Part shown: positions 6,810-53,608 of the stretch, piece after piece
Layout of the letters: each line of letters begins with the position of its first letter
Position numbering within the stretch: position 1 is the first letter of the stretch
Assembly: GCA_016934515.1 (NCBI GenBank)
Contig: JAFGSR010000009.1
Location: 2,375-66,374 of the forward strand
Length of the DNA: 64,000 nucleotides
DNA from: Sedimentisphaerales bacterium
GTDB taxonomy: Bacteria > Planctomycetota > Phycisphaerae > Sedimentisphaerales > SM23-30
Reading direction: 5' to 3'
Notes under the pieces: model-generated
Told to the model about the DNA's origin: nothing
The model's database searches: none
Seen by the model: only the letters and a program-made list of their open reading frames with translations
Translations under genes and position numbers: made by a program

Positions 6810-7000
6810 ATGCCCGATCAAGTCGGGCATGACAAGTCGGGCCGAGGGTAAGTTGGGAAGATATCGGACACCCCCAAGAGTACTTGGCGGTGCCACCCGA
6901 GGGATTTATTTCGCCCCTTCAGGGCTAAAATACATAAATAATGATTATGTCCCAGGGCGTTGCTCTGGGCTATTATATTTCGCCCTTTCAGGGCGGTTAT
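6810..7000. repeat. Cluster of small hairpin repeats
   Basis: ATGCCCGAtcaagTCGGGCAT (6810-6830). Two copies of ATTTCGCCC(C/T)TTCAGGGC (about 6907 and 6976). CCCAGggcgttgctCTGGG (6951-6969). Confidence 0.65.
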
Positions 7001-7037
7001 GAGTAAGTTTTCTATATTTGAGTTGCCCTTATGCAAA

Positions 7038-18000: not shown

Positions 18001-18029
18001 GAAAAAATAAAGACAAACCAGAAAGATGA
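15006..18029 (+). CDS. Large membrane protein: BatA-type N-terminal anchor, two VWA domains and a GATase1-like domain
   Basis: N-terminal 'aerotolerance regulator'-type TM pair. VWA-like segments (VIGVLDRSLS...LLLISDGNETDG; HIIVISDGDPSPP). GATase1/ThuA-like segment (HVLVVDADG...ADAIILAN...GGGLIMTGG). C-terminal TM helix and charged tail. ATGA overlap with the upstream gene. Confidence 0.8.
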   Translation: MTGNYHIYFAQPVWLIGWVLIIPLLWLARYNLATLGPVRRFLAVIFRCLTIALLVGLLAQPKLTRENQNLCVIGVLDRSLSIPEPLAKASLQYLIDSLPDKLVQNRFAVVDIAEAASISKLPSNTTEIRQRNTTLFGRQTKLSDGVQMALAIAPPDTATRLLLISDGNETDGDLKEAARIAAANQIPIDVLALRYQYENEVIFKRLVAPAHARSGQTVSLRFVLASTVETQGKLFLTLNGKSVDIDPDSDQVAAVVHLKPGTNVKTISLPLGTRGIHDFKATFIPDDPQRDKITQNNQVSALTAVLGPGHVLVVDADGSSGQTLRGLLGNTNLDIRSCLVDDFPTDLSQLIDADAIILANTDCGSFSFHQQQLLTRYVNDLGGGLIMTGGPSAFGAGGWIGSPVADILPVDLDPPQKKQLPKGALVLVMHACEMPQGNYWGKKVAQAAVKTLSRHDLVGILAYGWQEGGSNWVFPLSVAGNKSAVMAAINQMQMGDMPDLASHIQAAYDKLKDSDAAQKHIIVISDGDPSPPSGNLLGQLKQAGITCTGVGIFPHSPADVNSLRRIAQLTGGRFYNVKNPNQLPQIFIKEAQVVRRALIVEETFTPQISYSLNEITQGLSVPLPDLDGYVLTGPKPGLSQMILNSNQSDPVLATCQSGLGRCLVFTSSLDSRWGSKWLSWSQAENFWEQALLWSAKSAQTGDCEILTDVNGRDVTVNIEAIDPEGKFQTLSNIGAQVISPDVSAKNLQLTQTGPGQYQGRFQADSAGNYILNLRYQKLGEDAQPQITQTPITVPFAPEYRDLSDNFALLQQVSTITGGRILPEDPEMADIFSTAGVKFPETHLPLNQPLMLIWLAVFLLDVAIRRIAFDFKALTKKLAIIFRSPASAKESEQTLERLKVTRRKVQDSYTSSGQDIAVSKAQAKKRYQGADQIADQSAVEMPQAGGAQAVQQAGGKFDGQSSPDSDKKAADDSKTTASPEDQEQSHIQQLLRAKRRAADRKNKDKPER

Positions 18030-24747: not shown

Positions 24748-25666
24748 AACCAAAAACCTTACCAAACACTATGGCGATCTGGCTGCCCTGGTCAACCTGA
24801 ACCTGAATATTCAGACCGGTGACATTTTCGGTTTCATCGGTCCTAACGGCGCCGGTAAGACAACCACCATGCGTATCCTGGCCACGTTGCTTGAACCAAC
24901 CTCGGGCCAAGCCTTTATCGACAGCTACGACGTTACCAAAGCCGGTCAAAAGGTCCGCCGCTGCGTCGGCTATATGCCGGACTTCATGGGTGTTTATGAT
25001 GATCTGAAAGTTTTTGAGTATTTGGAATTTTTCGCTGCCGCTTTCAATATCGAACGCAAAAAAAGAAAATCTATCGTCGAAGGCGTCCTCGAACTTACCG
25101 ACCTCCAATCCAAAAGCACCACCGCAGTTGACAGTCTGTCCCGTGGTATGCAGCAAAGACTCGGACTGGCCCGGGTGCTTATCCACGATCCCAAAGTGCT
25201 CATTCTGGATGAGCCCGCCAGCGGCCTGGACCCGCGCGCCCGCATCGAAATTCGTGAGCTGCTGCGTGAATTGAAACGCATGAACAAAACCATCATGATC
25301 TCCAGCCACATTCTCAGCGAACTGGAGGAAATCTGCAACCAAGTGGGCATCATCGAAAGCGGCAAACTGGTCTTTAGCGGGACCATGGACGAAATCAAAC
25401 AACGCATGGGTATCCTAAGCAGGGTTAAGGTCCGCGTCGCCGACCAGCCACAACAGGCTGTGGAGTTGCTCATTGCCCTGCCCCAGATCCAAAACGCCAC
25501 CATCGTTGGCGACCATATCGCCGTAACCTTCAACGAAGGTGCCGATGGAGACGGCATCATCGCCCGCACCCTGGTTTTGGGTAACATTGACGTTATCTCG
25601 CTGGAACCCGAACAGCTAAAACTTGACGACGCGTTTCTGCAACTAACCAAAGGAATCGTCAACTAA
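24740..25666 (+). CDS. ABC transporter ATP-binding protein (ABC-2 type)
   Basis: Walker A GPNGAGKTT, signature LSRGMQQRL, Walker B LILDEPASGLD, H-loop SSHIL. Confidence 0.93.
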   Translation: MIETKNLTKHYGDLAALVNLNLNIQTGDIFGFIGPNGAGKTTTMRILATLLEPTSGQAFIDSYDVTKAGQKVRRCVGYMPDFMGVYDDLKVFEYLEFFAAAFNIERKKRKSIVEGVLELTDLQSKSTTAVDSLSRGMQQRLGLARVLIHDPKVLILDEPASGLDPRARIEIRELLRELKRMNKTIMISSHILSELEEICNQVGIIESGKLVFSGTMDEIKQRMGILSRVKVRVADQPQQAVELLIALPQIQNATIVGDHIAVTFNEGADGDGIIARTLVLGNIDVISLEPEQLKLDDAFLQLTKGIVN

Positions 25667-25732
25667 ACCGAATCAACATTGACTGAACCGGATTAATTTT
25701 GAAATCGTTCGACGTTAACAGGTTGCTTCATA

Positions 25733-27523
25733 ATGGCGCAAATCATAACCAACATCATCGCCCGCCTTAATCCGGCCGCACTAACCGGGCCTATTTTCGA
25801 AAAGGAACTCCTTGTCTCCAGCCGGCGAAAAAGAAACTATTACCTTCGCTTTGTTTATTTAGCTCTTTTGACCATCTTTGTCGGTTACACCTGGTACAAT
25901 ATCGTCGGAGAATTCAGCAACGATTCTGCCGTTTACCGTGCGTCACACATGGCCGAGGCCGGCATTGCCATTACCGCCACTATCGTCTGGTCCCAGTTCA
26001 TCATGATTCAGCTCGTGGCTGTTTCGCTATTGTCCGGTGCCATCAGCGACGAAACCAACAGCCGCACACTCGGCGCACTCATGACCACCCCCATTAGCTC
26101 ACTGCAAATTGTCCTGGGCAAACTCTTCAGTCGATTGCTCCAGCTTTTTCTGCTCCTGGCACTTAGCCTGCCAATCCTGGCCATCGTCCGTGTCTTGGGC
26201 GGTGTACTCTGGGGCTACATCATTTCCAGTCTCTGCATCACTTTCACCGCCATGCTTTTGGCCGGCTCACTCAGCCTTTTATTTTCTATCGACAGCAAAA
26301 AATCTTCCCAGGCATCTGGTGCGGCCCTGGCAACTTTATTTATTTTTTATGGCTTGATACCCTTATTACTCACTTGGCTGATTTTCGAAAATCACCTGTC
26401 GCAAAACTTCCTGGATTATTTTCTCTGTCTGACTAATCCTTTCTACGTCCTAACCTTCAACACCGGCATAATGTTTTCCACAGGTGCTGCTGTCCCGATC
26501 ATTCCCTGGTGGGTGCATTGTCTTTTTTCGCTGGGTGTTTCCGTTGCCATTCTCGCTTTCGCGACGGTGCGAGTTCGCAAAGCGGCCCTAGCCCAGCTTT
26601 TCGGTAAATCAAAAAAATCCAGAAAAAAGCTTCTCGCTGCCCAATCCTCCAACTCATCTGGCTTGCCTTCCAAACGCTCTGATAAAATCAGCCACGTCAA
26701 AGGCCATCCAATCGCCTGGAAAGACCTCATCACTTTCACTCGCAAGCAAACCAAAACTGCCACCAACCGTATCGCAGGGGGAATGGTTCTCATTGGTGCG
26801 CTGTCTTTATATGCTCTTTGCTTTGCCAAAGGATGGTTCAAGGAAGAAGTCTGTCAGTTCGCCTATATTCTGGTTTACATGGTCGTCCTGATAATTTGCA
26901 ATGCCACCATGGCCGCTGAATCCATTACTTCCGAAAAAGAATCACAAACCTGGCCCCTGCTGCTGAACACTTCTCTGACTGACTGGCAAATCATTTTTGG
27001 CAAATATCTCGGTGTGTTGCGCCGCTGCCTGCCAATTTACATTTTACTCGCTGCCCATTTGTTGTTGTTCACCCTGCTTGGCTATATTCACCCGTCCGCA
27101 TTGTTTCATCTGCTCCTGATAGTAATCGGTATCTTTGCCTGGTTTGCCGGATCCGGAATGTTTTTCAGTACCCTAACCAAAAAAACCTCCACCGCCATTA
27201 GTCTGACTATTTTCCTGTCTCTGATGCTGGGTCTCTTTATTCCTATTTGCGGTGGAGTGGGAACGAATGGAGACGCTGCTGAAGTATTATTTTCTGCCAA
27301 CCCACTCGTCCAAACTGGCGTTGTCTTAAATGAAACTCTCGGCGAACGAAATGTTCGTAAACCAGTAAGCCATCTTCGCTACGAATGGCCCACTGACAAA
27401 TACAATTTCAGAGAAACTACATTAATAATTTCTCCATCGACTTTTTTCTATCTCGTTGCCGGATTTTTCTTTACTATCTTTGCCCGAGGCAGCTTGCGTC
27501 GGAACATTTTCGCAAAAACCTAA
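25733..27523 (+). CDS. Internally duplicated ABC-2-type permease, paralog 1
   Basis: About 12 TM helices. Both halves carry an ABC-2 permease signature (ISDE.NSRTLGALMTTPI...I.GK and ITSEKESQTWPLLLNT.L....I.GK). Conserved N-terminus LTGPIFEKEL..SSRRKRNY. Confidence 0.8.
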   Translation: MAQIITNIIARLNPAALTGPIFEKELLVSSRRKRNYYLRFVYLALLTIFVGYTWYNIVGEFSNDSAVYRASHMAEAGIAITATIVWSQFIMIQLVAVSLLSGAISDETNSRTLGALMTTPISSLQIVLGKLFSRLLQLFLLLALSLPILAIVRVLGGVLWGYIISSLCITFTAMLLAGSLSLLFSIDSKKSSQASGAALATLFIFYGLIPLLLTWLIFENHLSQNFLDYFLCLTNPFYVLTFNTGIMFSTGAAVPIIPWWVHCLFSLGVSVAILAFATVRVRKAALAQLFGKSKKSRKKLLAAQSSNSSGLPSKRSDKISHVKGHPIAWKDLITFTRKQTKTATNRIAGGMVLIGALSLYALCFAKGWFKEEVCQFAYILVYMVVLIICNATMAAESITSEKESQTWPLLLNTSLTDWQIIFGKYLGVLRRCLPIYILLAAHLLLFTLLGYIHPSALFHLLLIVIGIFAWFAGSGMFFSTLTKKTSTAISLTIFLSLMLGLFIPICGGVGTNGDAAEVLFSANPLVQTGVVLNETLGERNVRKPVSHLRYEWPTDKYNFRETTLIISPSTFFYLVAGFFFTIFARGSLRRNIFAKT

Positions 27524-27607
27524 AGAACTCAGCATTTTGCATAACCGCTCAGGCTTAACAAAGCCCAAGATTACGAACTGTTGCAACCGGGCAAAAAAAC
27601 TGTAACA

Positions 27608-29443
27608 ATGAAATCGGACTCAAAAAAATTAATCACTCACTTCAGTCTGGCAGCTCTAACCGGCCCGGTCCTGACCAAGGAACTCCGCGTCGCCAGCCGC
27701 CGAAAAAGAAACTACCTCCTCCGTTTCATTTACCTGGCTTTGATGACCTGTTTTGTGGTGTTGGTCTGGTTCAACACTGTTGAAAGCTACAAGTCCGCCT
27801 CCTACGCCACCAGCCGCATGGCCGAAGCCGGAAAAACCATCATCGCCACCATCATCGCCTTTCAGTTCCTCACCACCCAGATCATCGCCGTCATCATGCT
27901 GTCCAACTCCATCAGCGACGAAATCTACCACCGCACCCTCGGCGTGCTCATGACCACGCCCATTAACAGCTTTCAGATTGTCTTTGGCAAGCTCACCGGC
28001 AAACTGCTCCAGATCATTCTGCTCCTGGCTATTTCGCTACCCTTGTTGGCCATCGTCCGCATCTTTGGCGGGGTACCCTGGAATTTTGTCGTTTCCGCCG
28101 CTTGCGTAACTTTCACCGCGGTTATCTTCGCCGGCTCGCTCAGCCTGCTGCTCTCGATCAGCGGACGACGTTCTTATGCTGTCATTCTTAAAACCCTCTT
28201 TATCCTTGGCACTCTTTACGGATTTTTCCCCGCCCTGATCGAATACTGCCTGCAGGGCACCGTATTTATAAGCCTTCTCCCTTCGGTTTTCTATTACCCC
28301 AATCCATTTGGCGTCATGATCCAGATGATCGGCCAAATGCTCAATCCCGGCGCTTTTACCATACAATTCAATTGGCTTCTCCATTGCGCCATCATGCTCA
28401 CCGCTTCAGCTTTTAACATCGCCCTGGCCGTCAAGCTCGTTCGTAAAGCCGCCCTCGCCCAGGCCGTCGGACAAATCAAACACCAAGCCGAATCACAAAT
28501 CATCACCCGAATCCTCAAGCCCAAAAACACCTCCGCTTCATCAAATTCCTCCGCCCTTACAAAAAACTTTCCATCCACCCAAGATTCCCAATCCCTCAGA
28601 TCGGTAACCGGCCCTGCGATTATCTGGAAAGAGCTCCGCACTCCCTTCATCCAGGGCGGTCGAGATTACAACGCCATCGGCCTGATCGTCGGCTGCATCG
28701 CCCTGCTTATTACGTATTTCTCCTCCGCTTACAACCAGGCCCTCGACGAAGATTTTACCCATAGCACTTATGTAATTGTTTTTGTTATGCTCGCCTTGCT
28801 TACTAACATCGTTCTTATCGCCACTTCGATCACCACTGAAAAGGAATCCCGCACTTGGCCCGTTCTGTTGGCCACCACCCAGACCGATTGGCAAATCCTT
28901 CTTGGTAAAGCGGTCGGGGCCTTTCGCCGCTGTCTGGTGTTCTGGCTCTTCCTGGGTGGACACCTGCTGCTGTTCACTCTGGTAAGATACATCCACCCCA
29001 TCGCGATTGTCCACCTAACCATGATTTTCGTCGGCATCGTTATTTTTCTGGCTGGTTCCGGTTTATATTTCAGTGCCCGGTTCAAACGCTCCACCTCTGC
29101 CGTCGTCGCTCACCTTACGCTGCTGCTGATCCTCTGGGCCGGCGTACCTACCATAGTCGCCCTTACCCTTGGTATCGCCAACATCTCCCGCGGTAACCGT
29201 GCCATGGAATTATCCGCCGCTGCCAATCCCGTCATTCAGTCCGGCGTCGTTGCCCATGCCGCCGCGGGCCTTTCCAATGCCCACAATCCCATCACCGAAC
29301 TTAAATACGAATGGGGCTTCCGTTACGACTGGAAAGCCCTGCCCACCACGATCCTGGTTTTCACTTACATGGTGATGTATATAATACTCGGACTGTTATT
29401 TGCCTGGCGCGCCAAACACCGAATCCGAAAAAACATCTTTTAA
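27608..29443 (+). CDS. Internally duplicated ABC-2-type permease, paralog 2
   Basis: Same architecture and motifs as paralog 1 (LTGPVLTKELRVASRRKRNY; ITTEKESRTWPVLLATT). I prefer the ATG at 27608 over TTG 27581. Confidence 0.8.
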   Translation: MKSDSKKLITHFSLAALTGPVLTKELRVASRRKRNYLLRFIYLALMTCFVVLVWFNTVESYKSASYATSRMAEAGKTIIATIIAFQFLTTQIIAVIMLSNSISDEIYHRTLGVLMTTPINSFQIVFGKLTGKLLQIILLLAISLPLLAIVRIFGGVPWNFVVSAACVTFTAVIFAGSLSLLLSISGRRSYAVILKTLFILGTLYGFFPALIEYCLQGTVFISLLPSVFYYPNPFGVMIQMIGQMLNPGAFTIQFNWLLHCAIMLTASAFNIALAVKLVRKAALAQAVGQIKHQAESQIITRILKPKNTSASSNSSALTKNFPSTQDSQSLRSVTGPAIIWKELRTPFIQGGRDYNAIGLIVGCIALLITYFSSAYNQALDEDFTHSTYVIVFVMLALLTNIVLIATSITTEKESRTWPVLLATTQTDWQILLGKAVGAFRRCLVFWLFLGGHLLLFTLVRYIHPIAIVHLTMIFVGIVIFLAGSGLYFSARFKRSTSAVVAHLTLLLILWAGVPTIVALTLGIANISRGNRAMELSAAANPVIQSGVVAHAAAGLSNAHNPITELKYEWGFRYDWKALPTTILVFTYMVMYIILGLLFAWRAKHRIRKNIF

Positions 29444-29556
29444 CACCCATTAACTACTTATGCAGGCAAGCTTTGATTGTCGATTAAAATCCAAAATTGG
29501 AATAATTCCAAAGCTATCCTTTTACATTTTTTCAAATAATATCACTGGATTTAACT

Positions 29557-31212
29557 GTGTCCGAAACCTTAATAAACATCTTTAGCCGTTTGAATCCTGC
29601 TATCCTGACCGGCCCTATCTTCGATAAGGAACTCCGCATTTCCAGCCGTCGAAAAAGCAATTATTGGCTACGCTGTATCTATCTGGCCCTTTTGGCTTTC
29701 TTCATTATTATGGCCTGGCTTCAGGCGACTGTTTTAAGCGGCGGTTTTTCTAACGTTGTTCGCATTTCCCGCATGGCCGAGATCGGTCGCACCACTATTG
29801 TCACCATCATCTGGTTCCAGTTTATTGCTACCCAACTAATAGCCGTGGTCATGCTCAGCAATGCCGTCAGCGAAGAAATCTCCAAACGAACCTACGCCGT
29901 TATGCTCACCACCCCCATTACCAATACCCAGTTCATTCTGGGGAAATTCTTCTCGAAAATCATCCAGTTGATATTACTGCTCATCCTCAGCTTTCCCGTG
30001 CTGGTCATCTTAAGAATCATGGGCGGCATGCCCTGGAACTTTGTCACTGTCGGCTTTTGTGTAACTTTTACCGCTGTGCTCTTTGCCGCCGCGGTCAGCC
30101 TGTTAATTTCCATCGTTAACCGACAAGCTTGGTCCGTCATCTTCCTGGTCACGGCTCTGTTAGCATTGCTCTATGGATTATTACCTCTGATTCTGAATAT
30201 TACAAAATCCCTGTCCGGCTCCGCCGAAACCTTCCTGCTGCTTACTAATCCCTATTACTATCTCATCCGACTTACCGAAAATACCGTTTTTCTCAGAGGC
30301 TCAGCCCTTAGCCTGCCCTGGGTTACCCACTGTCTGTTCATGATTGTCGCATCGGGACTGGTATTGTTTGTCGCTGCTCTGGGCCTGAGAAAAACCGCCC
30401 TCCGCCAGGCCTTTGTACCTCGAACGAACTTATTTAAATCAACATTTTTCAAAAAAATCCCCATATTAGGAAAATCTTCTGATAATCGTCTTAGACCGGT
30501 TAATCGCAAACCAATTATCTGGAGAGAATTATTAATCCCTCCCCTGATCCCGGGTTTTTCAGGTGTTACAACTTATATAGTCCTGCTTGTCCTGCTGCTT
30601 ATTCTGAATGCTTTATTGTTTTATTTTAATTTTTTCGACGAGCCGTCCATCCAGATAGGTTGCCTGTCCATTTTATTGTTCATTACTCTTATCAGAACCG
30701 CCACTTACGCCGCCTCTACCTTCACCCGCGAAAAAGAAGCCCGCACCCTCACACCACTGCTAACCACACCTCTAAGCGACGATGACATTCTCCGCCATAA
30801 AGCCCTGGCCTCGTTTTTACGCAGCCTTCCCTTATGGGCCATCATTTTCACACACCTGCTTTTCTTCTCCCTTGCCGGCATTATCAACTCCCTCAGCTTT
30901 GTTATTGTCCCCCTGATGATGACCGGACCAATATTTTTCCTGATCGGCTCCGGAGTTTATTTCAGCACCCGCCTGAAAACCACAACTAAAGCAGTTGTTG
31001 CCACTTTCGCACTGGCACTGGGTACTTGGTTTATATGTCCCTGCTGTGGTATGGCTAATCCATTTTATATACTCTTTTTTATGTCAACAGAAGTTGACGA
31101 ATTTATAGGTTTTTACTTCTTATTTTGCTTGATCGCCTCCATTGTAGAACTGATTGTCGGATTTTGTTTTTATGTTGCTGCCAAAAAGCATATACGCTGT
31201 AATCTTACGTAA
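29557..31212 (+). CDS. Internally duplicated ABC-2-type permease, paralog 3
   Basis: Same architecture (LTGPIFDKELRISSRRKSNY; FTREKEARTLTPLLTTPL). GTG start. The most divergent copy. Confidence 0.78.
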   Translation: MSETLINIFSRLNPAILTGPIFDKELRISSRRKSNYWLRCIYLALLAFFIIMAWLQATVLSGGFSNVVRISRMAEIGRTTIVTIIWFQFIATQLIAVVMLSNAVSEEISKRTYAVMLTTPITNTQFILGKFFSKIIQLILLLILSFPVLVILRIMGGMPWNFVTVGFCVTFTAVLFAAAVSLLISIVNRQAWSVIFLVTALLALLYGLLPLILNITKSLSGSAETFLLLTNPYYYLIRLTENTVFLRGSALSLPWVTHCLFMIVASGLVLFVAALGLRKTALRQAFVPRTNLFKSTFFKKIPILGKSSDNRLRPVNRKPIIWRELLIPPLIPGFSGVTTYIVLLVLLLILNALLFYFNFFDEPSIQIGCLSILLFITLIRTATYAASTFTREKEARTLTPLLTTPLSDDDILRHKALASFLRSLPLWAIIFTHLLFFSLAGIINSLSFVIVPLMMTGPIFFLIGSGVYFSTRLKTTTKAVVATFALALGTWFICPCCGMANPFYILFFMSTEVDEFIGFYFLFCLIASIVELIVGFCFYVAAKKHIRCNLT

Positions 31213-31256
31213 AGATTCACCAAAATTATTAAACGGTTTTCTGCTAGGTAAAATTC

Positions 31257-33041
31257 ATGATCAAACACCTTGCCAATTTATCCTCTTATATCAGCCCTGC
31301 GTCTCTAACGGGACCCATCTTTGAAAAAGAACTTTGCGTATCCAGCCGACGTCGGCGAAATTACCTGCTTCGTTTTGTCTATCTTATCCTGTTAACCTTT
31401 TTCGTCGTGCTGGTCTGGCTCGGCGAAACACAATTTTCTCGCAACCGCTCGGTCGTTTATCAGGTTTCCCGCCTGGCCGAAGTTGGTAAAACCGTTGTCC
31501 TGACTATTGTCTGGTTTCAGTTTTGCTTCACTCAACTGGTCGCCGTTATCATGCTCTCCAACTCCATCAGCGACGAAATCTACCACAAAACCCTCGGCAC
31601 CCTCATGACCACCCCCATCAATGCCCTGCAAATCGTCCTGGGAAAATTGCTCAGCAAGCTCCTGCAAATCCTTATCCTGATCGGTCTGTCCCTGCCTCTG
31701 CTAGCTGTCGTCCGCGTCTTCGGCGGCATCCCCTGGGATTTTGTCGTCTCCAGCCTCTGCATTAACCTCACCACCGTCATCTTCGTCGCCTCCATCAGCA
31801 TGTTCTTTTCCATCTTCACCCGCCACAGCTATCTCGTTATCATCTTTACTGCCCTGACCATGGCTGTTCTTTTTTATCTGCTACCGATTATTGCCGGACT
31901 AATTTACTTGGGTTGTCATATATGTAACGAAAACACTTTCTTATCTGTTCTTTGCAACTTTAATCCTTATATTACCCAGATAGCCGCAACTGTAAAATTA
32001 ATGTCAGCGCGCGGAATGCCATTTTCTTGCTACTGGCCGGCACACTGCCTGATCTCTCTAGCCGGCTCCGCTGTCATACTAATCTTTTGCGTTAAAATGG
32101 TCCGCAAAGCCGCCCTCGCCCAAGCCGCCGGCATCCCCATTTTTGCCCCCAGAAAAAAATCCTCCCCATCCGCCAAAATCTCCAACCACCCCACAAAAAC
32201 CTCTCCCGTCGCCCGTATAAGAACTGTCTCCGGCTCCGCGGTCCTCTGGAAAGAACTTAGGAAACCTTCCTACTTTCGCCGCGCTAAAATACTTAAATAC
32301 CTCTTTTTTATTTTCGCCCTGGCTGTCCTGGTATTCACCTATATCGGCCTCGCTTTAGAAGACGATTTAAAACACGATGAAGTTCAGATTACTTACGTCA
32401 TTACCATGATGTCCCTGGCCATGCTCTTTACCATCACTCTGCCGGCCACCTGCATCACCACGGAAAAGGAATCCCGCGCCTGGCCTATCCTGCTCGGCAC
32501 TACGCTAAACGACAATCAGATTCTCATCGGTAAATTCCTCGGCCAGATTCGTCGCTGCCTGCCCGCCTGGATATTGATGTTCGCCCACATTACCTTTTTT
32601 ATATTGGATGGAATCATTCGCCCCATTGCTCTTCCCATGATGATTATCATTTCCGCCTGGGTCATAATCTTCTTTTGCTCCACTGGCATCTACTTCAGTG
32701 CCCGCTTCAAACACACCACCACCGCCGTCATTATGAATTTCGCCTTGGCAATATTCCTCTGGTTTCTCGTCCCCTTTGTTTTGCTGCTACTTTGTGAAGC
32801 CTTCAACCTGATTAACGACGACATCGCCGAAGGCTACATTAATTGCATTCCCTTTGTTCAGGCTGTTGTAGTTATCGATGGCGCCTGTAAGCCTGAGTTC
32901 TCATTTTATTGGCCGGAAATCAGACGCATTGGCACCATTTCATCCCTGCTGCTGCTGTCGGTGTTTTTCATTGGCTATTCCACCCTTGCCGCCGCCTTCC
33001 TCTGGCGCGCAAAAAAACTTTTCCGCAAAAAAATCTTCTGA
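31257..33041 (+). CDS. Internally duplicated ABC-2-type permease, paralog 4
   Basis: Same architecture (LTGPIFEKELCVSSRRRRNY; ITTEKESRAWPILLGTTL). Confidence 0.8.
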   Translation: MIKHLANLSSYISPASLTGPIFEKELCVSSRRRRNYLLRFVYLILLTFFVVLVWLGETQFSRNRSVVYQVSRLAEVGKTVVLTIVWFQFCFTQLVAVIMLSNSISDEIYHKTLGTLMTTPINALQIVLGKLLSKLLQILILIGLSLPLLAVVRVFGGIPWDFVVSSLCINLTTVIFVASISMFFSIFTRHSYLVIIFTALTMAVLFYLLPIIAGLIYLGCHICNENTFLSVLCNFNPYITQIAATVKLMSARGMPFSCYWPAHCLISLAGSAVILIFCVKMVRKAALAQAAGIPIFAPRKKSSPSAKISNHPTKTSPVARIRTVSGSAVLWKELRKPSYFRRAKILKYLFFIFALAVLVFTYIGLALEDDLKHDEVQITYVITMMSLAMLFTITLPATCITTEKESRAWPILLGTTLNDNQILIGKFLGQIRRCLPAWILMFAHITFFILDGIIRPIALPMMIIISAWVIIFFCSTGIYFSARFKHTTTAVIMNFALAIFLWFLVPFVLLLLCEAFNLINDDIAEGYINCIPFVQAVVVIDGACKPEFSFYWPEIRRIGTISSLLLLSVFFIGYSTLAAAFLWRAKKLFRKKIF

Positions 33042-33085: not shown

Positions 33086-35236
33086 TTATTCCTGCTCTGC
33101 AAAACTCGCTCGGGTCTCCACCGGCGGCAAATACCCCTCATCCCCACAAGCTTCAAAAATTCGCCGCGCAATCGGTGCCGCCACCGTTCCACCGCCGCCA
33201 TCATCTTCCACCACCACCGCCAATGCAATAGTCACACCGTCCGCAACGTGTCCGTAACCACCAAACAACGAACAATGCGTTGTCGAACCGGTCTTGCCGT
33301 ACAACTGCACCGTTTCTTTGGGCCAGGGTGCTGGATTAAATGCTTTATAACCCGATCCGCCCCTTTCGTAAACCACCGCTTGCATTCCCTCGCGCACCCA
33401 CCGAATATTTTCGGCATTAACACTTAGCTTTTGCCTTTGATCAGCAATTGAAAAATCATCTATCAGCCTTGGCCGCATCAATACCCCATCCCGCGCGATC
33501 GTGCAAAAACTGTTGGCAATTTGCAACAGTGAGTCATCCAGGGTCCCAAGTCCAACTGACATAGATTGCAAATCCCTAACGCTCGGCTCGCTGCCATCCC
33601 AAGGCCCCATGTGCCCTACTGCCTCCCGGAACGCGATGTGAATCCTGCTGTCCGAAAGCCCACTTGGCCAGGCCAGCTCCCGCCTGCCAAATCCCGCTTG
33701 CCTGAGCCAATTTAAAAACCGCTCGTACCCCATTTTGCTCACCAATTCAATAAAATAAAAATCGCAACTGCGCTTCAACGCATCGCGACCATCAACCTCA
33801 CCATGTCCATACAGATAACAAACCGACCGCGGCAGCATATTAAAATTCCCCGGCACGCACAGATATTTCCACTCGAAAGACACCACCCCATCTTCCAACA
33901 GTCCAAACAGCAAAGTCGGCTTGATCGTAGAACCCGGTTCATAAACTTCGCTAAGTGCCCGATTGAGCTTGACCTTTTCCACATCACCTGCCCCCGGAAA
34001 GTTAATCCGCTTAAACTCCTCCGCCAGATAATACCGGCTCAAATCAAACGTCGGCACCGACACCATCGCCAACACTTTTCCCGTCACCACATCAATCACC
34101 ACCGCCGCACCACGATAAATTTTACCCTGGGCATTGTCCCCCTCAAAAAATCTCGCTATCCTCCGCTGCAACTCAATATCAATCGTCAACCGCACATTAC
34201 TGCCGATTACCCGCTCAATTTCACTTACAATCTGTCCGTGACGATCCAACTTCACCCAACCTCGCCGGCCCCGAAGCTGCTGTTCAAACAAATACTCAAC
34301 GCCCCACTCGCCCCGCCGCTCACCCAGACGATACCTCAACAATTCCTGCAAATCAGGCTTATCCCTCTCCGCCTCACCTGCTCCTTCCGCCAAACCAGCC
34401 ACTTCCGCCTGAATATCATCTTTTATCGTCTCTTCCGCCTGTACCGCCCGAACCTGACCGATCAGATGACAACCTGCCCGCCCATACGGAAAAACTCTTC
34501 TCTTGCCCAAACGAATGCTTATCAAACGATTGCTCCCCTCACTCCCAAACCAGCCCCCCACCATCCGCTCTTCAATCGTCAATGCTTCATCTCTACTGAT
34601 GTTCGCCAATATCACTTGCGGCTCATACATCTCCCGCACCGCGTTTTCCGCCTGATACAGTTGCCACAAACGCTTATCCTCATCCGGTACCCTTTCCGCA
34701 TAATCCCTCAATATCTCCGCCGCACCGGCCATCGTCCGCCACTGAAGCTTCTCGTTTTCATAGTGCCGCCGCCGCGCTCGTGCCGTTTGCAAAACATGAA
34801 TGCTGTCATTAATCTCATTGATACTCTCCAGCAATTGCTCACATGAAACACTGCACAACTCCGACAGGTCCTCCAGCAGATCATCCGCTTCCGACCGCTG
34901 CTTCAGTAACTTCTCCCGCTGCTCCTGTTGTTTATCAGGATTTTTCTGCCAGAACAATTCCTGATACTGCCAGAATCGCTCATCATATAAACGTGTCAAC
35001 TTGTAGGTCAGACAAACATCAAAACTTGCCCGATCCAAGGCTAATACCCGCCCCTTGCTATCATAAATCGTCCCCCGGACGGTTTCAATTTGCCGGCCCG
35101 GCAACTCCAACGCCGCCTTCGATAACAACTGGTATTTCTCCCCCTCCAAAACCTGCAACCAAATCAGCCGACAGGCCAACATCCCCAATCCCAACCCCAT
35201 AACTATCGCAAAAATTCTCAGCCGACGCTGGAACAT
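33086..35236 (-). CDS. mrdA: Penicillin-binding protein 2-type transpeptidase
   Basis: N-terminal TM anchor. SxxK (GSTIKP), an SxN-like motif (SCD) and KTG (GKTGST). Unusually long, charged pedestal region. Confidence 0.85.
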   Translation of the reverse strand: MFQRRLRIFAIVMGLGLGMLACRLIWLQVLEGEKYQLLSKAALELPGRQIETVRGTIYDSKGRVLALDRASFDVCLTYKLTRLYDERFWQYQELFWQKNPDKQQEQREKLLKQRSEADDLLEDLSELCSVSCEQLLESINEINDSIHVLQTARARRRHYENEKLQWRTMAGAAEILRDYAERVPDEDKRLWQLYQAENAVREMYEPQVILANISRDEALTIEERMVGGWFGSEGSNRLISIRLGKRRVFPYGRAGCHLIGQVRAVQAEETIKDDIQAEVAGLAEGAGEAERDKPDLQELLRYRLGERRGEWGVEYLFEQQLRGRRGWVKLDRHGQIVSEIERVIGSNVRLTIDIELQRRIARFFEGDNAQGKIYRGAAVVIDVVTGKVLAMVSVPTFDLSRYYLAEEFKRINFPGAGDVEKVKLNRALSEVYEPGSTIKPTLLFGLLEDGVVSFEWKYLCVPGNFNMLPRSVCYLYGHGEVDGRDALKRSCDFYFIELVSKMGYERFLNWLRQAGFGRRELAWPSGLSDSRIHIAFREAVGHMGPWDGSEPSVRDLQSMSVGLGTLDDSLLQIANSFCTIARDGVLMRPRLIDDFSIADQRQKLSVNAENIRWVREGMQAVVYERGGSGYKAFNPAPWPKETVQLYGKTGSTTHCSLFGGYGHVADGVTIALAVVVEDDGGGGTVAAPIARRIFEACGDEGYLPPVETRASFAEQE

Positions 35237-35388: not shown

Positions 35389-37158
35389 TTACTTGCCCCC
35401 CGGCACCAACACAATATCCAGTCCGTCAGCAAATCTCAATATCCCGCTCGAACCGACTTCACAGCCAATCAAACCCAAAGAATCCTTTATCGGCTTCTTA
35501 ATCAAATATATAATTTTCACTGTCTCCATACTGCCGCTCTTTTTGACCAACTCAAGCTTTTCCGGATAACCGGCAAAATTATTCGCCGTCAAATTTTTAT
35601 CCGACGTAACGTAACCAAACTCAATCGCCTTGTTGGTGCCTATCTTGCCCACCACTATCATACCCGCATGTGGATAGGTTCTTAACTGACTGTCCACCAG
35701 TTTGGGTACTTCAAAGTTTGATCCCGATTTATAATCCTTGGCGTCAATTTCCAAAAGCACTGCGGTATAATCAGGGGGAACAAAAACGCCTCTGGTCGAT
35801 TTGCCGTCAGTCTTGCCCTCCAATTTAACCAGAAAATGACCGCTCTTAACCAAATCACCCTCAAGCTTTAAAGCCGCCACTTCTACATAATTACCTTCCT
35901 CTTTCTCCTTCTCTTTCTCTTTCTCCTTCTCCTTCTCCTTCGCTTTATTGATCATTTCCTCACCGGGCACTCCCAGTTTCTTCAGCAACTCCTGATTTTC
36001 CTTGGAAATAACCGTCAATTTCTCAAAATTGTAAACAATTGAGCTGTCCATAGGCTTCAGAATTTTCCCTTCACCTGCCGCACTCACCGCCGCATAACGA
36101 TTCTCCACCGGCGGCTCAGCTTCGGCCAGCATTTTTGCGCTGGTAAATTCCACCCAGGCCGTTCGCTTAAACTCGATATATTTCGGAGCAATCTCCTGCA
36201 TATCACCAGGCCACTCAAAAAGCAAATCTACCTCACGAGTGTTCGGCAACATCTTGCCGTCGCCCAATCCCACGCTATCCACCACCTTCCAATCCGGCAG
36301 CAAAAACCCCATCGGATAAATCGAAGTCCCCGGCTCCCGGTGATCCTCCGAATCGAATCCTACCAGCCGAAAATTACCCAGCGTAAACCTTATCTTACCG
36401 TCTGCGTCCTTTGCCCCAGGCTTCGCCTCGCTACCCGCCGAAATTTGAACCCGCGCCGCAATAAATCGACCATCTGCTTCAGGAATTAATGTAGTGCCGC
36501 TCGACAAATCTTTTAATCCATCCCCGATTATCCACGCCTTAACCAGCCGTATCGATTCCGGTGCCGCTTCCTGACGACTACCCTGAGCCAACGTAAAACG
36601 ATTCATATACAACTCACGACGCATATCCGGATGAAAACGACAAAAATTGGTCGAACCGCTAAAACCATAATTGCTCGACTGCTTCACCAGCGAAAGTACA
36701 AAACCGTCCGCGTTGGGAAATAAATTCTTGGCTTCTTCAAGCTTACCCAAATCCGGATACCGGTCATACCCCTTAATCTGCGGCGAAATCGGCATCATCT
36801 GAAATCCCAATGCGATAATGCCTACCATCGTCAAACTGCTCAACAAACCAAAAAAACTCGCACCAATCCGGTCTATCAACATCGAAAATTTCATATTCCC
36901 TTTAATAAAACGATCCGTCAATAATCTCAAAATCAGTAACGTCACCAGAAAAATCGCTATCAGACTTCCCCCCTTGGTACCACCGGCCGCGAATCCCTTA
37001 CTATTCAACAGCCCCGCCAGCAACTCAAAATAGTTGAACGCCACTAGCGCCGACATCATGCTCAACATCGACATAATCAATGAACTGAACAAACCCTGGG
37101 TAAAAACCAGATAACTTGCCAGCCCCAACACCAGAACAAAAACAATAAATACCACCAT
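35389..37158 (-). CDS. CvpA-like four-TM membrane protein with a large C-terminal soluble domain
   Basis: The N-terminal 130 aa resemble the colicin V production (CvpA) membrane domain. The remaining roughly 450 aa are unrecognised and contain a (KE)n run. Confidence 0.65.
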   Translation of the reverse strand: MVVFIVFVLVLGLASYLVFTQGLFSSLIMSMLSMMSALVAFNYFELLAGLLNSKGFAAGGTKGGSLIAIFLVTLLILRLLTDRFIKGNMKFSMLIDRIGASFFGLLSSLTMVGIIALGFQMMPISPQIKGYDRYPDLGKLEEAKNLFPNADGFVLSLVKQSSNYGFSGSTNFCRFHPDMRRELYMNRFTLAQGSRQEAAPESIRLVKAWIIGDGLKDLSSGTTLIPEADGRFIAARVQISAGSEAKPGAKDADGKIRFTLGNFRLVGFDSEDHREPGTSIYPMGFLLPDWKVVDSVGLGDGKMLPNTREVDLLFEWPGDMQEIAPKYIEFKRTAWVEFTSAKMLAEAEPPVENRYAAVSAAGEGKILKPMDSSIVYNFEKLTVISKENQELLKKLGVPGEEMINKAKEKEKEKEKEKEKEEGNYVEVAALKLEGDLVKSGHFLVKLEGKTDGKSTRGVFVPPDYTAVLLEIDAKDYKSGSNFEVPKLVDSQLRTYPHAGMIVVGKIGTNKAIEFGYVTSDKNLTANNFAGYPEKLELVKKSGSMETVKIIYLIKKPIKDSLGLIGCEVGSSGILRFADGLDIVLVPGGK

Positions 37159-37263: not shown

Positions 37264-38991
37264 TTACTTCCCCACCTGTTCAGAACTCGCCTGGTTCTGC
37301 TTCTTGGCCGGGGGCCGGTTCTTCTTCTCCGTCGTCACACGCAAAACTTCCTGGATACTCGTCGTACCATCAATTACCCTGCGCAAAGCCTCTTCCTGCA
37401 AATATAGCATCTTCTCCTTGCGGCATTGCGCTCTTATCGAATTTACCGGTGAGTCCTGTCGTATTAATTCACGCAGACCATCTGAAATAAATAACGTCTC
37501 AAAAATGGCCGTCCGACCAAGATAACCTGTCCCCTGACATACCGGACACACTATGGGACGACCCCGCTTGTCATATTCAATTTCACCCGGACGGTAAAAC
37601 TCTTTTATCTTGTTCGACGGCAAATTCAACTTCTTCAGCAATTCCTTATCCGGCGTATACTCCACTCGGCATTCCGTACATAACTTACGAAACAAATTCT
37701 GACAAATCACTGCCAATAGAGTATCTGCCACCGCCTCGTTCTTCTGAACCATATTCAACCAAGCCTGCAATCCATGAAATGTACTCTGCGCAGCTAAACC
37801 AAAATAAAGCTTCTTGCCGTCTAAAGCCCCCTTGGTCCCCACCTGAGCCATCTTATTACCCTCGCAAAAACCCACCATCACCACGTCCGGGTCACTACGC
37901 AAAACACTCTGCAATTGCCGGGCATAATCCTTACCCTCCACTGTCGGATCAGTAGTGAATCGCTGGGAAACATTATCCATATCCAACAATTCCTTTTTCT
38001 CCAAACTCGACACATTCTGAATAAAAGCATCGTGAGTCAACGCCATACTATACAAAGTCGTCGATATCCCCGAGTCCTGCTCGCCACACACCAGCACCAC
38101 CCCCTTAGGCTTGGCAATTATCTCTTTTATTACTTCCAACTGACTACTGTTAAATCCCAAAGATTCCAACTTTAAGGTCCGTGCCTCCTCCACCCGTTCC
38201 AATTCCATCCGTTCTCCCTGAGTGCTTCCCGCAGTACGGATTCGCCATCGACAGTCTCGATGCTCACCTAATTGAACCGAAAAATGGCCCTCCTGAGGTT
38301 TACGCCGGTCCTTAACTTCCAGTCCCCCCACCGCCTTCAAATAAGTTATCGCCTGCTCCGTCTCCAGATTCGTCCACTCGCCAGCTACCCCTTTGACGCC
38401 ATCGATAACATATAGCATCTGATAGTTCTCACCCATCGGATTCATTTCTACCAGACTAACCCGCCCGTTGGAAATCTCATATACCAGCCGCTCACCCGCA
38501 ATGTGCCCCGCATACTCCGGCTCCTGACGCAATGGCACCGGTAACTTGTTGCCGTGCGATGACACAAACACCAACCGCGATTTTACTTCTTTCTTACCTT
38601 CCCGTGCCAGAATACTCCTGATATGATCCGCTGTAAAAATACGCAACTCACGCGAAACTCGCACATTTCGGTGCATCACATAGATTATCATCAATGTCAC
38701 CCAGATAGACAAAAACAGCAACATATCGACAATAAAACTCGTCGGCAAAATTATCCACAGCAAAAACGCCCCACTACCCGCTCCAACATACAAATTATTC
38801 CAAAACGACTGCCTGGTCTGAACCAGCAGCGTATCCTTGTCCAACCACTGCCCCACCCACGCCCATATTCCAAACAGAAGAATAAATATCACTACCTTCC
38901 AGATAGCAAAATAGCCTCCTAACGCTACCGACTCACCTAAAATATACATAAACATGCACGACTCCATAACCAAAATTCCCATTAAGGTCAA
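37264..38991 (-). CDS. Membrane-anchored GspE/PilB-family homolog with degenerate ATPase motifs
   Basis: Four N-terminal TM helices, then the T2SS/T4P ATPase fold. Walker A reads GEQDSGIST instead of GPTGSGKST. The Walker B region reads DPDVVMVGFCEG instead of ...VGEIRD. The His box is lost. The tetra-Cys motif is kept (CTEC...CPVC). The start is uncertain (TTG 38991 or ATG 38982). Confidence 0.75.
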   Translation of the reverse strand: MTLMGILVMESCMFMYILGESVALGGYFAIWKVVIFILLFGIWAWVGQWLDKDTLLVQTRQSFWNNLYVGAGSGAFLLWIILPTSFIVDMLLFLSIWVTLMIIYVMHRNVRVSRELRIFTADHIRSILAREGKKEVKSRLVFVSSHGNKLPVPLRQEPEYAGHIAGERLVYEISNGRVSLVEMNPMGENYQMLYVIDGVKGVAGEWTNLETEQAITYLKAVGGLEVKDRRKPQEGHFSVQLGEHRDCRWRIRTAGSTQGERMELERVEEARTLKLESLGFNSSQLEVIKEIIAKPKGVVLVCGEQDSGISTTLYSMALTHDAFIQNVSSLEKKELLDMDNVSQRFTTDPTVEGKDYARQLQSVLRSDPDVVMVGFCEGNKMAQVGTKGALDGKKLYFGLAAQSTFHGLQAWLNMVQKNEAVADTLLAVICQNLFRKLCTECRVEYTPDKELLKKLNLPSNKIKEFYRPGEIEYDKRGRPIVCPVCQGTGYLGRTAIFETLFISDGLRELIRQDSPVNSIRAQCRKEKMLYLQEEALRRVIDGTTSIQEVLRVTTEKKNRPPAKKQNQASSEQVGK

Positions 38992-39118: not shown

Positions 39119-40231
39119 CTATAAAATGCTCGCTCCGCCGGACGAAATACCCTTCAACGCCATCTTTAACTCGTCCGCGTTCGGTGAGTACGCATAAGCC
39201 GTCTTCAGATCAATGTATTCCTTTTCAACCAGTTGCTTCAATGATTCCGAAAAATTAATCATCCCCTCCGCATGTGACGATTTTATCACCGTTGCCAACT
39301 CCACTTCACGCTCATCAGCTATCAGCTTTTTCACCGATGCATTAACCAGCAGTATCTCCGCCGCCGGCACCCGCGAAAATTCATCACATATCGTCGGTAA
39401 CAACCGCTGCGAAATCACCGACCGCAGGTTACCTACTATCGCCTGTCGAACCATGTGCCTCTCAATTTGCGGAGTCAGATCCAGTAACCGCGTGACTGTC
39501 TGATAGGCATCCGTGCTGTGCAGCGTACCAAAAACCAAATGCCCCGTCTCCGCCGCTCGCAATCCCGCTATCAACGTCGGATAGTCACGAATCTCACCGA
39601 TTAGCACTACATCCGGATCTTCACGCATCAGCGAACGCAGCGCTTCATCGTAATCCGCTACATCCACGCCGATCTCCCGCTGACTTACCAACGCCTTGTC
39701 GTCCTGAAAAATAAACTCAATCGGATCTTCAATCGTAATGATATGGCAGGCTCGATTACGATTGATAAAATCCAGTATCGACGCAATCGTCGTACTCTTG
39801 CCACAACCGGTTACCCCCGTCACCAGCACCAGCCCCTGATAATATTCCGCAATCTTCTCCACCGATCCCGGTAGATGCAATTGCTCAAACGGCGGCACCT
39901 GGCTGTTCACCCGACGCGCCGCCAACGCCGCATGTCCACGCGCCCGATAAATATTCACCCGAAACCGATCCGTACCTCCCATGTCATAAGCAAAATCCAG
40001 AGAACCATTCTCCAGAAAATAAGCCTTCTGCTCCGGACTCAATAACTCAAATATCAACTCCTCCGCTTTATCACCCGGAATCGGATCACCTGTGGTCGTT
40101 TTCAATCGCCCGCCCGCCCGAATCCGAGGCTTCTCCCCACCCTTGATGTGCAAATCCGATCCCTCAGACTTGATAACCAGACTGAAATACTTATCCAACT
40201 GTGCCGGCTTATCCGACAACAAACGCTTCAT
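39119..40231 (-). CDS. pilT: PilT-type type IV pilus retraction ATPase
   Basis: Walker A GVTGCGKST, DPDVVLIGEIRD, AETGHLVFGTLHS. I prefer the ATG at 40231 (MKRLL...). Confidence 0.9.
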   Translation of the reverse strand: MKRLLSDKPAQLDKYFSLVIKSEGSDLHIKGGEKPRIRAGGRLKTTTGDPIPGDKAEELIFELLSPEQKAYFLENGSLDFAYDMGGTDRFRVNIYRARGHAALAARRVNSQVPPFEQLHLPGSVEKIAEYYQGLVLVTGVTGCGKSTTIASILDFINRNRACHIITIEDPIEFIFQDDKALVSQREIGVDVADYDEALRSLMREDPDVVLIGEIRDYPTLIAGLRAAETGHLVFGTLHSTDAYQTVTRLLDLTPQIERHMVRQAIVGNLRSVISQRLLPTICDEFSRVPAAEILLVNASVKKLIADEREVELATVIKSSHAEGMINFSESLKQLVEKEYIDLKTAYAYSPNADELKMALKGISSGGASIL

Positions 40232-40309
40232 CAACGGTTGCTTAGCCAATTTACAACTCCATTCCCAAACACACTTATTCACTGAGAAACATTATTGCAC
40301 CATTGTTTT

Positions 40310-41110
40310 TCAGTTAACCGATGTCAAGTTCTTCTCCTGATTGTCCAGCCTAACATTCACTCCTTTGTCCCGTAAATATCGCTTCGCCTGTTCAATCGTG
40401 TACTTACCAAAATGAAAAACACTCGCCGCCAACGCCGCATCCGCCTTTCCTTTCGTCAGCACATCATACATATCTTCCAGCGTACCCGCACCGCCGCTGG
40501 CCACTACCGGAATATTCACCTCTTCACTTACTGCCGAGGTCATCTCCAAATCATAACCCGCTTTGGTCCCGTCCGCATTCATCACGTTCAGCACAATCTC
40601 ACCGGCTCCGTCATCACGACCCTTACGCACCCAACGCATTACTTCGATCCCGGTTGCCTTGCGCCCGCCGTTGACGAAAACCTCCCAAAACTCCTTGCCG
40701 TTCTTCTTCACCCGGTTGGCGTCTATCGCCAGAACAATGCACTGACTGCCAAACCGCAATGCCGACTGCTTTATCAAACTCTCATCCAGCACCGCTGCTG
40801 AATTGATACTTACCTTATCCGCCCCGTTATTCAACATCAGCCGCACATCTTCAATTGTTCTTATCCCGCCCCCCACCGTCAACGGCATAAACACCCGTTC
40901 CGACGCCTCTCGCAAAATATTCAGCGTCAGTTCCCTCTCCTCGTGGCTGGCTGTTATGTCATAAAAAACCAACTCATCCGCACCCTGCTGCTCATACCGA
41001 ACCGCACATTCTGACACACTGCCCGCGTCCACGTGGTCAAAAAATTTCACGCCTTTGACCACTCGCCCCTTGTCAACATCCAAACATGGTATGATTCTCT
41101 TGGCCAGCAT
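40310..41110 (-). CDS. hisF: Imidazole glycerol phosphate synthase cyclase subunit
   Basis: [49 protein letters not shown]. Confidence 0.92.
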
Positions 41111-53095: not shown

Positions 53096-53608
53096 ATGTC
53101 GCATTCTGATGAAATAACTGCCGTCCTTAAAGAACATCCCCAAGCCCGGCGGGACTCTTTGATACCAATCTTGCAGCAGATTCAAGACCGCACCGGTTTC
53201 ATCTCCCCTCAAGCTGTACAGATGGTCTCGGATGAATTGTCCCTGCCGACCAGCAAAATTTACGGCGTGGCAACTTTTTACAATCAGTTTCGTTTTCAGC
53301 CCCTGGGAAAATTTCATGTTCAGGTTTGCCGCGGAACTGCCTGTCACGTTAAGGGCTCGGCCGCGGTTTTGGACATGTTGATCAGGGAGCTTAACATCAA
53401 GCCCGACGAAACCACTCGCGACGGCTTGTTCAGCCTGGAAATTGTCGCCTGCATCGGGGCTTGCGGCTTGGCTCCGGTAATCAGCGTAAACGGCGAATTT
53501 CACGGCGGTGTTACGCCGGACAATATCAAAAAAATCTTGGATTCTTATCGCGCTCAAGCTCAGAAAGATCAATCTCAAAACGATGCTCAGGAAGATAAAG
53601 CAAAATGA
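53096..53608 (+). CDS. hydC: [FeFe]-hydrogenase NuoE-like [2Fe-2S] subunit
   Basis: LIPILQ.IQ...G.I.......V...L.....K.YGVATFY..F...P.GK....VC.GTAC...G, and C.GACGLAP. Confidence 0.88.
   Translation: MSHSDEITAVLKEHPQARRDSLIPILQQIQDRTGFISPQAVQMVSDELSLPTSKIYGVATFYNQFRFQPLGKFHVQVCRGTACHVKGSAAVLDMLIRELNIKPDETTRDGLFSLEIVACIGACGLAPVISVNGEFHGGVTPDNIKKILDSYRAQAQKDQSQNDAQEDKAK

Follow-up and report, generated by a model that had tools for sequence, protein, structure and literature searches.

A membrane-anchored GspE/PilB-type protein with degenerate ATPase motifs, encoded between PilT and a CvpA-like protein in Planctomycetota

The motor ATPases GspE, PilB and PilT form soluble hexamers, with separate membrane proteins as their docking sites. 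Here we describe a gene for a homologue of GspE and PilB, termed pseudo-GspE, in a 64,000-nucleotide stretch of DNA from a Sedimentisphaerales bacterium of the phylum Planctomycetota (contig JAFGSR010000009.1; this whole stretch is called the window), where it lies between the genes for a PilT-family ATPase and a CvpA-like membrane protein. We refer to these three genes as the triad. Pseudo-GspE has in common with GspE, PilB and PilF (PF00437, TIGR02533, TIGR02538; structures 4ksr, 5tsh and 5it5) a fold composed of an N2D domain and a C-terminal domain (CTD), a tetra-cysteine motif and an RxPQxG motif. However, it differs from these proteins by loss of the Walker A Lys, the Asp box, the catalytic Glu and the His-box histidines, and by three transmembrane (TM) helices that replace the N1E/GSPII domain. 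Its gene also differs from GspE and PilB genes in that it has no adjoining genes for GspF/PilC, GspL/PilM, pilins or a secretin. From its sequence, pseudo-GspE thus appears to be a pseudoenzyme derivative of a GspE/PilB motor in a new, phylum-wide three-gene module.

Three other described systems resemble parts of this locus. The first is the PilT-PilU pair of type IVa pili where, as in the triad, two homologous hexameric ATPases are encoded side by side. PilT variants that are defective in ATP binding or hydrolysis still permit PilU-dependent retraction (PMC6762196), indicating that a dead hexamer can serve as an adaptor for a homologous motor. However, PilT and PilU are both soluble and naturally active, with the dead state being a laboratory or strain variant that is not fixed across lineages, whereas the dead partner in the triad is of the PilB/GspE type and is membrane-integral. 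The second is the inner-membrane anchor that GspL or PilM-PilN provides for an assembly ATPase, which is similar to the TM module of pseudo-GspE (the GspE-GspL complex 4pht is among its phmmer and Foldseek matches). In contrast to pseudo-GspE, which carries its anchor in cis and lacks N1E, the tether of those systems is a separate bitopic protein that binds N1E. The third is CvpA (PF02674), as the four-TM N-terminus of the triad protein matches Colicin_V. Unlike E. coli CvpA, for which we know of no ATPase partner, the triad protein is extended by ~460 residues that form beta-rich domains, and its gene is operon-linked to those for two members of the PilT/GspE family. For E. coli CvpA, a preprint (bioRxiv 10.1101/2020.09.25.314492) describes the function as 'largely unknown' and links the protein to the sigma-E envelope stress response. 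A full-text literature search, with coverage that omits most subscription journals so that absence is not proof, found no description of a membrane-anchored GspE/PilB, of a naturally dead GspE/PilB paralogue or of a PilT–CvpA link, and neither the protein family nor the triad has a description there.

Motifs, selection and predicted structure of pseudo-GspE

The open reading frame (ORF) listing of the window gives an uninterrupted frame of 575 codons for pseudo-GspE that opens with TTG. The coding sequence (CDS) probably starts at the ATG of Met13 (38955), because the first residue of a 95%-identical orthologue (P0001) corresponds to this Met and because residues 1-24 are disordered in the AlphaFold2 model described below (predicted local distance difference test score, pLDDT, < 50). 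The features of the gene are as follows.

37264..38991, minus strand: maximal ORF of the membrane-anchored pseudo-GspE/PilB, assigned by the ORF listing, Pfam, NCBIfam, phmmer and AlphaFold2; probable CDS 37264..38955
38659..38904, minus strand: N-terminal membrane module with three TM helices, based on AlphaFold2 (pLDDT > 90 here), hydropathy and conservation
38515..38658, minus strand: cytoplasmic linker, residues 112-159, with conserved T120, H123, N148, P151 and P153
38191..38514, minus strand: N2D domain with the near-invariant R230-x-P232-Q233-x-G235
38056..38085, minus strand: degenerate Walker A GEQDSGISTT, Lys replaced by Ile; G303, G308 and T/S310-312 conserved
37984..38010, minus strand: degenerate Asp box SSLEKKELL, in which the first Glu (E331) is the sole retained residue
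37858..37893, minus strand: degenerate Walker B DPDVVMVGFCEG, catalytic Glu replaced by Phe
37783..37824, minus strand: degenerate His box LDGKKLYFGLAAQS, first His replaced by Lys393 and second His lost
37537..37680, minus strand: tetra-cysteine motif C438, C441, C482 and C485, invariant in 116/116 sequences

An earlier note, made from the letters alone, had described this protein as a full-length GspE/PilB homologue with an intact frame, and the profile searches agree. Pfam T2SSE matches residues 169-551 (E=2.9e-45), and the NCBIfam models for GspE (TIGR02533) and PilB (TIGR02538) align along their whole catalytic regions despite low scores of 192 and 184 bits, which are below the respective equivalog cut-offs of 630 and 676. 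The model for PilT/PilU retraction ATPases (TIGR01420) gives 50 bits, below its cut-off of 319. No TadA/CpaF model is listed among the NCBIfam matches, the best of which are GspE, PilB, TfpB and ComGA, and retention of the tetra-cysteine motif also sets pseudo-GspE apart from the TadA/CpaF label that NCBI has given to several homologues. Generic database names for homologues include 'TadA', 'GspE/PulE family' and 'CvpA family'.

Motif substitutions were read from a phmmer alignment with Vibrio cholerae EpsE (4ksr; E=4e-43), with motif coordinates re-translated, and are also evident in the Pfam and NCBIfam alignments. Specifically, Walker A is GEQDSGISTT in pseudo-GspE as compared to GPTGSGKSTT in EpsE, so that Lys is replaced by Ile, and the Asp box is SLEKKEL as compared to TVEDPIE, with the canonical EDPIE changed to LEKKE. 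Walker B is DPDVVMVGFCEG as compared to DPDVVMVGEIRD, with VMVGF present in place of hhhhGE. The His box is LDGKKLYFGLAAQS as compared to LTGHLVMSTLHTNT, and the canonical TGHxxxxTxH is not found in DGKKLYFGLAAQ, where the first His is Lys/Arg and the second is absent. The CxxC...CxxC of EpsE is kept, and this zinc-type tetra-cysteine motif is a predicted metal site. No alternative P-loop is present elsewhere in the protein.

These substitutions are shared by homologues, for which residues were counted in a 116-sequence alignment and in a separate set of 85 sequences taken from loci. The Walker A Lys position is occupied by Val (52), Leu (24), Ile (21), Gln (5), Thr (5), Arg (5), Ala (3) or Ser (1) and is never Lys in the alignment, and Lys is likewise found in 0/85 of the locus sequences. 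The surrounding P-loop residues are retained, with G303 kept in 113/116, G308 in 116/116 and T/S310-312 in 115 to 116 of 116 sequences, as is E331 (115/116). In addition, R230, Q233 and the four Cys are invariant, while P232 and G235 are present in 115 and 114 sequences, respectively. Thus the earlier note was correct that Walker A has become GEQDSGIST without its Lys, that the Walker B/catalytic Glu region is degenerate and that the tetra-cysteine motif is intact. Its statement that the His box is gone applies to both histidines, which are replaced; the first position (393) nevertheless holds a conserved basic residue in 109/116 sequences (74 Lys, 35 Arg). Its broader claim that every ATPase motif has degenerated fits the clade of the window gene, where the alignments indicate that the residues for ATP hydrolysis (the Walker A Lys, the Mg-binding Asp box, the catalytic Glu and both His) are gone. 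It does not extend to other dead clades, as the catalytic-Glu position (375) is Asp in 48, Phe in 45 and Glu in nine of the 116 sequences.

The retained residues raise the alternative that pseudo-GspE is a rewired enzyme that hydrolyzes ATP or another nucleoside triphosphate, for example with Lys/Arg393 standing in for the Walker A Lys. This would fit the P-loop positions that persist in 113 to 116 of 116 sequences, the basic residue at 393, the invariant R230 and the Asp or Glu at 375 in other dead clades. However, the Asp-box acids, the catalytic Glu (now Phe) and both His have been lost jointly in the window gene's clade, no conserved acidic residue has taken their place, and the profile scores are ~30% of the equivalog cut-offs. 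We consider such an activity improbable.

Loss of all catalytic motifs could also be explained if the gene were a recently inactivated pseudogene with a frame that is still open, and this explanation is refuted by several lines of evidence. A search of 5.8 billion proteins recovered at least 120 full-length homologues of 545-590 aa with 34-95% identity from Sedimentisphaerales, Anaerohalosphaeraceae and metagenome-assembled genomes of other Phycisphaerae and Planctomycetota, and a relative is encoded in at least 548 species-representative genomes, with all 80 that were retrieved being Planctomycetota. The ratio of nonsynonymous to synonymous substitution rates (dN/dS; Nei-Gojobori method, against one 95%-identical orthologue with dS about 0.18) is 0.114 for pseudo-GspE and 0.119 for the adjacent PilT, indicating that these two genes are under equal purifying selection. 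The values for the CvpA-like gene and for a downstream PBP2-type transpeptidase gene are 0.240 and 0.186. Furthermore, when pseudo-GspE is divided into four sub-regions, one of which contains the dead P-loop core, dN/dS stays < 0.17 in all of them. Together with the invariant non-catalytic residues and a high-confidence structural model, these values uphold the earlier proposal of a pseudo-ATPase scaffold as opposed to a decayed gene.

An AlphaFold2 model of pseudo-GspE built on the 116-sequence alignment has a mean pLDDT of 90 and a predicted TM-score of 0.76, and is composed of three long N-terminal helices, a conserved linker and then a complete N2D and CTD. AlphaFold2 and hydropathy both place TM helices at residues 30-57, 61-81 and 86-111. 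The earlier note had counted four, and its first TM helix falls upstream of the probable true start at Met13. Residues of the TM module that are invariant in the family include W49, D53 and W64 (across the 116-sequence alignment), as well as P83, Y104 and H107-R108-N109, and the linker occupies the place of the N1E/GSPII domain found in soluble GspE/PilB. A Foldseek search of the PDB with this model returned PilF, PilB and GspE with E values of 5e-38 to about 1e-33 and 24-28% identity over ~395 columns, and for PilB/PilF the E value was about 1e-36 with target-normalized TM-scores of 0.86-0.89. The predicted fold is thus that of a complete GspE/PilB N2D and RecA-like CTD.

A P-loop scaffold and N2D arginine in such a fold would also suit a protein that binds a ligand without turnover. 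This raises a second alternative in which pseudo-GspE is a regulatory sensor of a nucleotide or second messenger that gates the activity or localization of PilT, and is not a mechanical coupler. PilB-family proteins are known targets of regulatory partners. However, no MshEN/GSPII, PilZ or other sensor domain was recognized in pseudo-GspE with Pfam or NCBIfam, and the strict conservation of the TM module, along with linkage to a polytopic membrane protein, exceeds what a cytoplasmic regulator would need. We regard a sensor role as unlikely, albeit somewhat less so than a rewired enzyme.

Catalytically intact relatives and origin of the dead state

Relatives that share the membrane module were collected by searching 1.84 billion representative proteins with a profile of residues 13-172. 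This gave 788 matches at E<=1e-3, with 440 of these at E<=1e-10. Among the best 150 of the 788 matches there are 45 full-length proteins, and 44 of these 45 are without the Walker A Lys. They include a second, more degenerate dead clade (APxxGL[TR]TT ... VVRDL) that has the same hisF–pilT–gspE–cvpA synteny (locus L090). The lone exception is P0268 (L087, 6001-7779), which has GPSGSGKTTT and IGEIRD and thus an intact Walker A Lys and catalytic Glu, and is encoded in the order hisF–pilT–P0268–cvpA. P0268 would represent an intermediate state, judging from its motifs. Degeneration has already affected its Asp box (TIEQATDY) and its His box (AGNTMMLAGVTAKD).

A search with P0268 recovered 120 proteins of ~582 aa from the Isosphaeraceae (Singulisphaera, Tundrisphaera and others), and the Walker A Lys and catalytic Glu are present in 120/120. 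Every sequence of this set that was inspected has GPTGxGK[ST]TT, EDPIEY, GEIRD and TGHMVFSTVH. These proteins, which are annotated as 'GspE/PulE family protein', carry the same TM module as the dead forms, including its W-D-W, P and Y-x-x-R-N residues, and belong to the same length class. Their loci have the order hisF – pilT – TM-gspE – short CvpA-like, and orthologues with intact motifs and this synteny were found at L087, L088 and L089. They differ from pseudo-GspE by intact ATPase motifs (GPTGSGKTTT) and by a CvpA-like partner of only 241-258 aa. The shared TM module and synteny indicate that the window gene is the positional orthologue of an intact membrane-anchored GspE-like ATPase. Thus, membrane anchoring is ancestral and phylum-wide, and motif loss is derived. 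The earlier note had called the N-terminal membrane fusion unusual for this family; the anchor is indeed present, but it is not peculiar to the dead form.

We also addressed how often the motifs were lost using a neighbor-joining tree with motif columns masked, 100 bootstraps and two outgroups (EpsE and PilF). TM-anchored proteins are monophyletic relative to EpsE and PilF in 93/100 bootstraps, and at least two state changes are inferred in 84/100. This suggests that the catalytic motifs were lost more than once, although the evidence is weak because of the neighbor-joining method, the use of only two outgroups and the long branches. A single origin of the dead state was considered and set aside, as the dead forms are monophyletic in only 16/100 bootstraps, which points to multiple losses without settling the question.

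The triad, its neighbors and other features of the window

The minus-strand gene order in the window is ppdK, hisF, pilT, pseudo-GspE, CvpA-like and a PBP2-type transpeptidase, and the features next to pseudo-GspE are as follows.

40310..41110, minus strand: hisF, upstream syntenic neighbor of the triad in several Planctomycetota classes
39119..40282, minus strand: PilT-family ATPase with all catalytic motifs intact; probable start Met18 at 40231
35389..37158, minus strand: CvpA-like membrane protein of 589 aa (Pfam Colicin_V, 34.4 bits), homologous across loci
33086..35236, minus strand: PBP2-type transpeptidase, downstream; linked to the triad only in the window gene's clade (members at least 49% identical)

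The adjacent PilT scores 377 bits with TIGR01420, above the cut-off of 319, and 272 bits with A. aeolicus PilT (2ewv). Synteny was sampled in 80 species loci, with counts limited to loci that have enough flank. PilT is located immediately upstream of the pseudo-GspE homologue in 69/74 species loci and a CvpA-like homologue is located immediately downstream in 69/74, with both neighbors present in 61 of the 69 loci that contain both flanks. Along with the conserved three-TM module, this position between the two neighbors characterizes a Planctomycetota family of TM-anchored GspE-like proteins, defined here, to which pseudo-GspE belongs. The Walker A Lys and catalytic Glu of the PilT partners are intact in 78/78 loci. 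Linkage to hisF, as well as to PBP2, is confined to some clades. A strong terminator follows ppdK and none is present between hisF and pbp2; hisF probably shares a transcription unit with the triad, which does not imply a functional link.

An AlphaFold2 model of the CvpA-like protein, built from 13 sequences, has a pLDDT of 79 and contains TM helices at residues 2-20, 23-53, 61-84 and 93-120 that are followed by beta-rich domains. Foldseek found no PDB fold match for these C-terminal domains at E<1e-3. The best-conserved segment is the positively charged loop between TM3 and TM4 (R78, D82), which the positive-inside rule places in the cytoplasm, and the modeled beta-domains are thus probably periplasmic. 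An (EK)n low-complexity insert at residues ~408-425, KEKEKEKEKEKEKEE, separates two beta-rich parts.

Genes for a pilin, PilC/GspF, GspL, PilM/N/O or a secretin were not found in the 64-kb window or in the inspected locus flanks. This bears on a third alternative, that pseudo-GspE serves as a membrane platform dedicated to an ordinary type IV pilus or type II secretion system with remaining genes located elsewhere in the genome, in which case the triad would not be autonomous. The PilT-family partner and the GspE/PilB ancestry would suit such a role, as would the many prepilin-like genes of Planctomycetota genomes, an example of which lies beside the L046 gene described below. However, besides the absence of these genes from the window and flanks, an inactive assembly ATPase could not extend a pilus, and we give this explanation only a small chance of being correct, comparable to that of a rewired enzyme.

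Several variant loci were also seen. At L046 (CP070718.1, Phycisphaerales bin470; 5926-7617) there is a lone pseudo-GspE orthologue with SAPSGHGLTTT that is without a neighboring PilT or CvpA-like gene, and a protein with a prepilin-type N-terminal motif is encoded convergently downstream. One database-called protein on a short contig (P0236) has a Colicin_V domain (33.6 bits) fused to TM-GspE. Apparent PilT–pseudoGspE and pseudoGspE–CvpA fusion ORFs of 935-952 aa (L062, L070, L079 and L083) were rejected, since the ORF listing gives separate genes and the tblastn high-scoring pairs spanned a stop codon. An anti-phage defense system was rejected as well, as PADLOC matches neither pseudo-GspE nor the CvpA-like protein and the locus has a syntenic context of housekeeping genes.

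Additional features of the window lie outside of the triad. Throughout 1-64000 there is an extreme strand compositional asymmetry that is independent of gene orientation, measured as third-codon-position GC skew on the plus strand. The skew is +0.65 for genes within 5-5599, ~0 at 14997-18029 and -0.5 to -0.73 at 27-47 kb and 59-63 kb, relaxing to ~-0.2 at 53.6-57.3 kb, and the change in sign is gradual over ~15 kb and not abrupt. The product of a plus-strand gene at 57358-59355 joins HisKA and HATPase_c to a domain that resembles a [FeFe]-hydrogenase large subunit and has Fe-S motifs, giving a sensory hydrogenase-histidine kinase that adjoins a HydA-type hydrogenase (55591-57339) and a NuoF-like subunit (53605-55590). 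Two nearby radical-SAM proteins (60877-62145 and 62138-63562) are, by resemblance, candidate hydrogenase maturases. The plus strand also codes for an 824-aa protein (12535-15009) with an unusual fusion of a BPD_transp_1 ABC-importer permease domain to a C-terminal NHL-repeat beta-propeller, and at 24740-33041 for one ABC ATPase followed by four consecutive ABC-2-type permease paralogues (551-620 aa), each with an apparently duplicated ABC2_membrane_2 domain.

Proposed role of the triad and its significance

Replacement of the catalytic residues in a gene that is nevertheless conserved beside a working PilT indicates that pseudo-GspE most likely belongs, as a non-catalytic component, to an envelope machine that has yet to be described. 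On balance we favor, as rather likely, a role for this dead, inner-membrane-anchored GspE/PilB-type protein as the structural middle component of a PilT-like / TM-GspE-like / CvpA-like module across Planctomycetota that couples the PilT-like motor to the CvpA-like protein. With motif loss, conservation, selection and synteny observed, we infer ring formation, PilT docking, nucleotide binding without hydrolysis and an output as follows. The ancestral module would have had two homologous motors resembling a PilB/PilT pair, and the one anchored in the membrane would have become a permanent non-catalytic ring or adaptor in the Phycisphaerae and in one or more further lineages. This adaptor, or stator, would dock the PilT-like hexamer at the membrane, and ATP-driven conformational changes of PilT would be relayed via the adaptor's TM helices to the CvpA-like protein and its periplasmic beta-domains. 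The likely target of such a machine would be the cell envelope. Retention of the Gly and Thr residues of the P-loop, of the first arginine of N2D and of a conserved Lys/Arg where the His box used to be suggests that pseudo-GspE may be able to bind, but not hydrolyze, a nucleotide or phosphate ligand.

There are several points that count against this role. An Asp or Glu persists at the catalytic position of some dead clades, and Arg replaces the Walker A Lys in four TM-module representatives, such that residual activity may persist in these Asp/Glu- or Arg-bearing clades. Binding of a nucleotide is proposed from residue conservation only. About 10% of loci, such as L046, are without an adjacent PilT or CvpA-like gene, and the P0236 fusion to CvpA is a single case. 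As the search covered the window and flanks, genes elsewhere in the genome may encode pilins, PilC or a secretin with which the triad works.

A more far-reaching version of this role, which we put forward tentatively and consider doubtful as a whole, is that the hisF-linked triad forms an envelope machine that works autonomously, needs no pilin and was present in the ancestor of Planctomycetota. Here a PilT-type motor would drive a CvpA-family protein via a membrane-integral GspE-like ring that was turned into a pseudo-ATPase stator independently in several lineages. If true, the PilT/GspE motor family would have acquired a new use, and a CvpA-family protein would have its first mechanistic partner.

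The triad adds to the motor-ATPase family a membrane-fused version that, in the Planctomycetota, whose cell biology is unusual, is paired with PilT and a CvpA-like protein. It also provides a concrete partner, at the genomic level, for the CvpA family, which is poorly understood. An orthologue that naturally occurs in both active and dead states allows the change of a motor subunit into a pseudoenzyme scaffold to be studied as a natural experiment, and offers a parallel, fixed in the wild type, to the laboratory observation that dead PilT can act as an adaptor for PilU. Finally, these genes are a pointer to an uncharacterized envelope system in Planctomycetota, and cultured Isosphaeraceae, along with genetically tractable planctomycetes if these bear the triad, could make this system directly testable.

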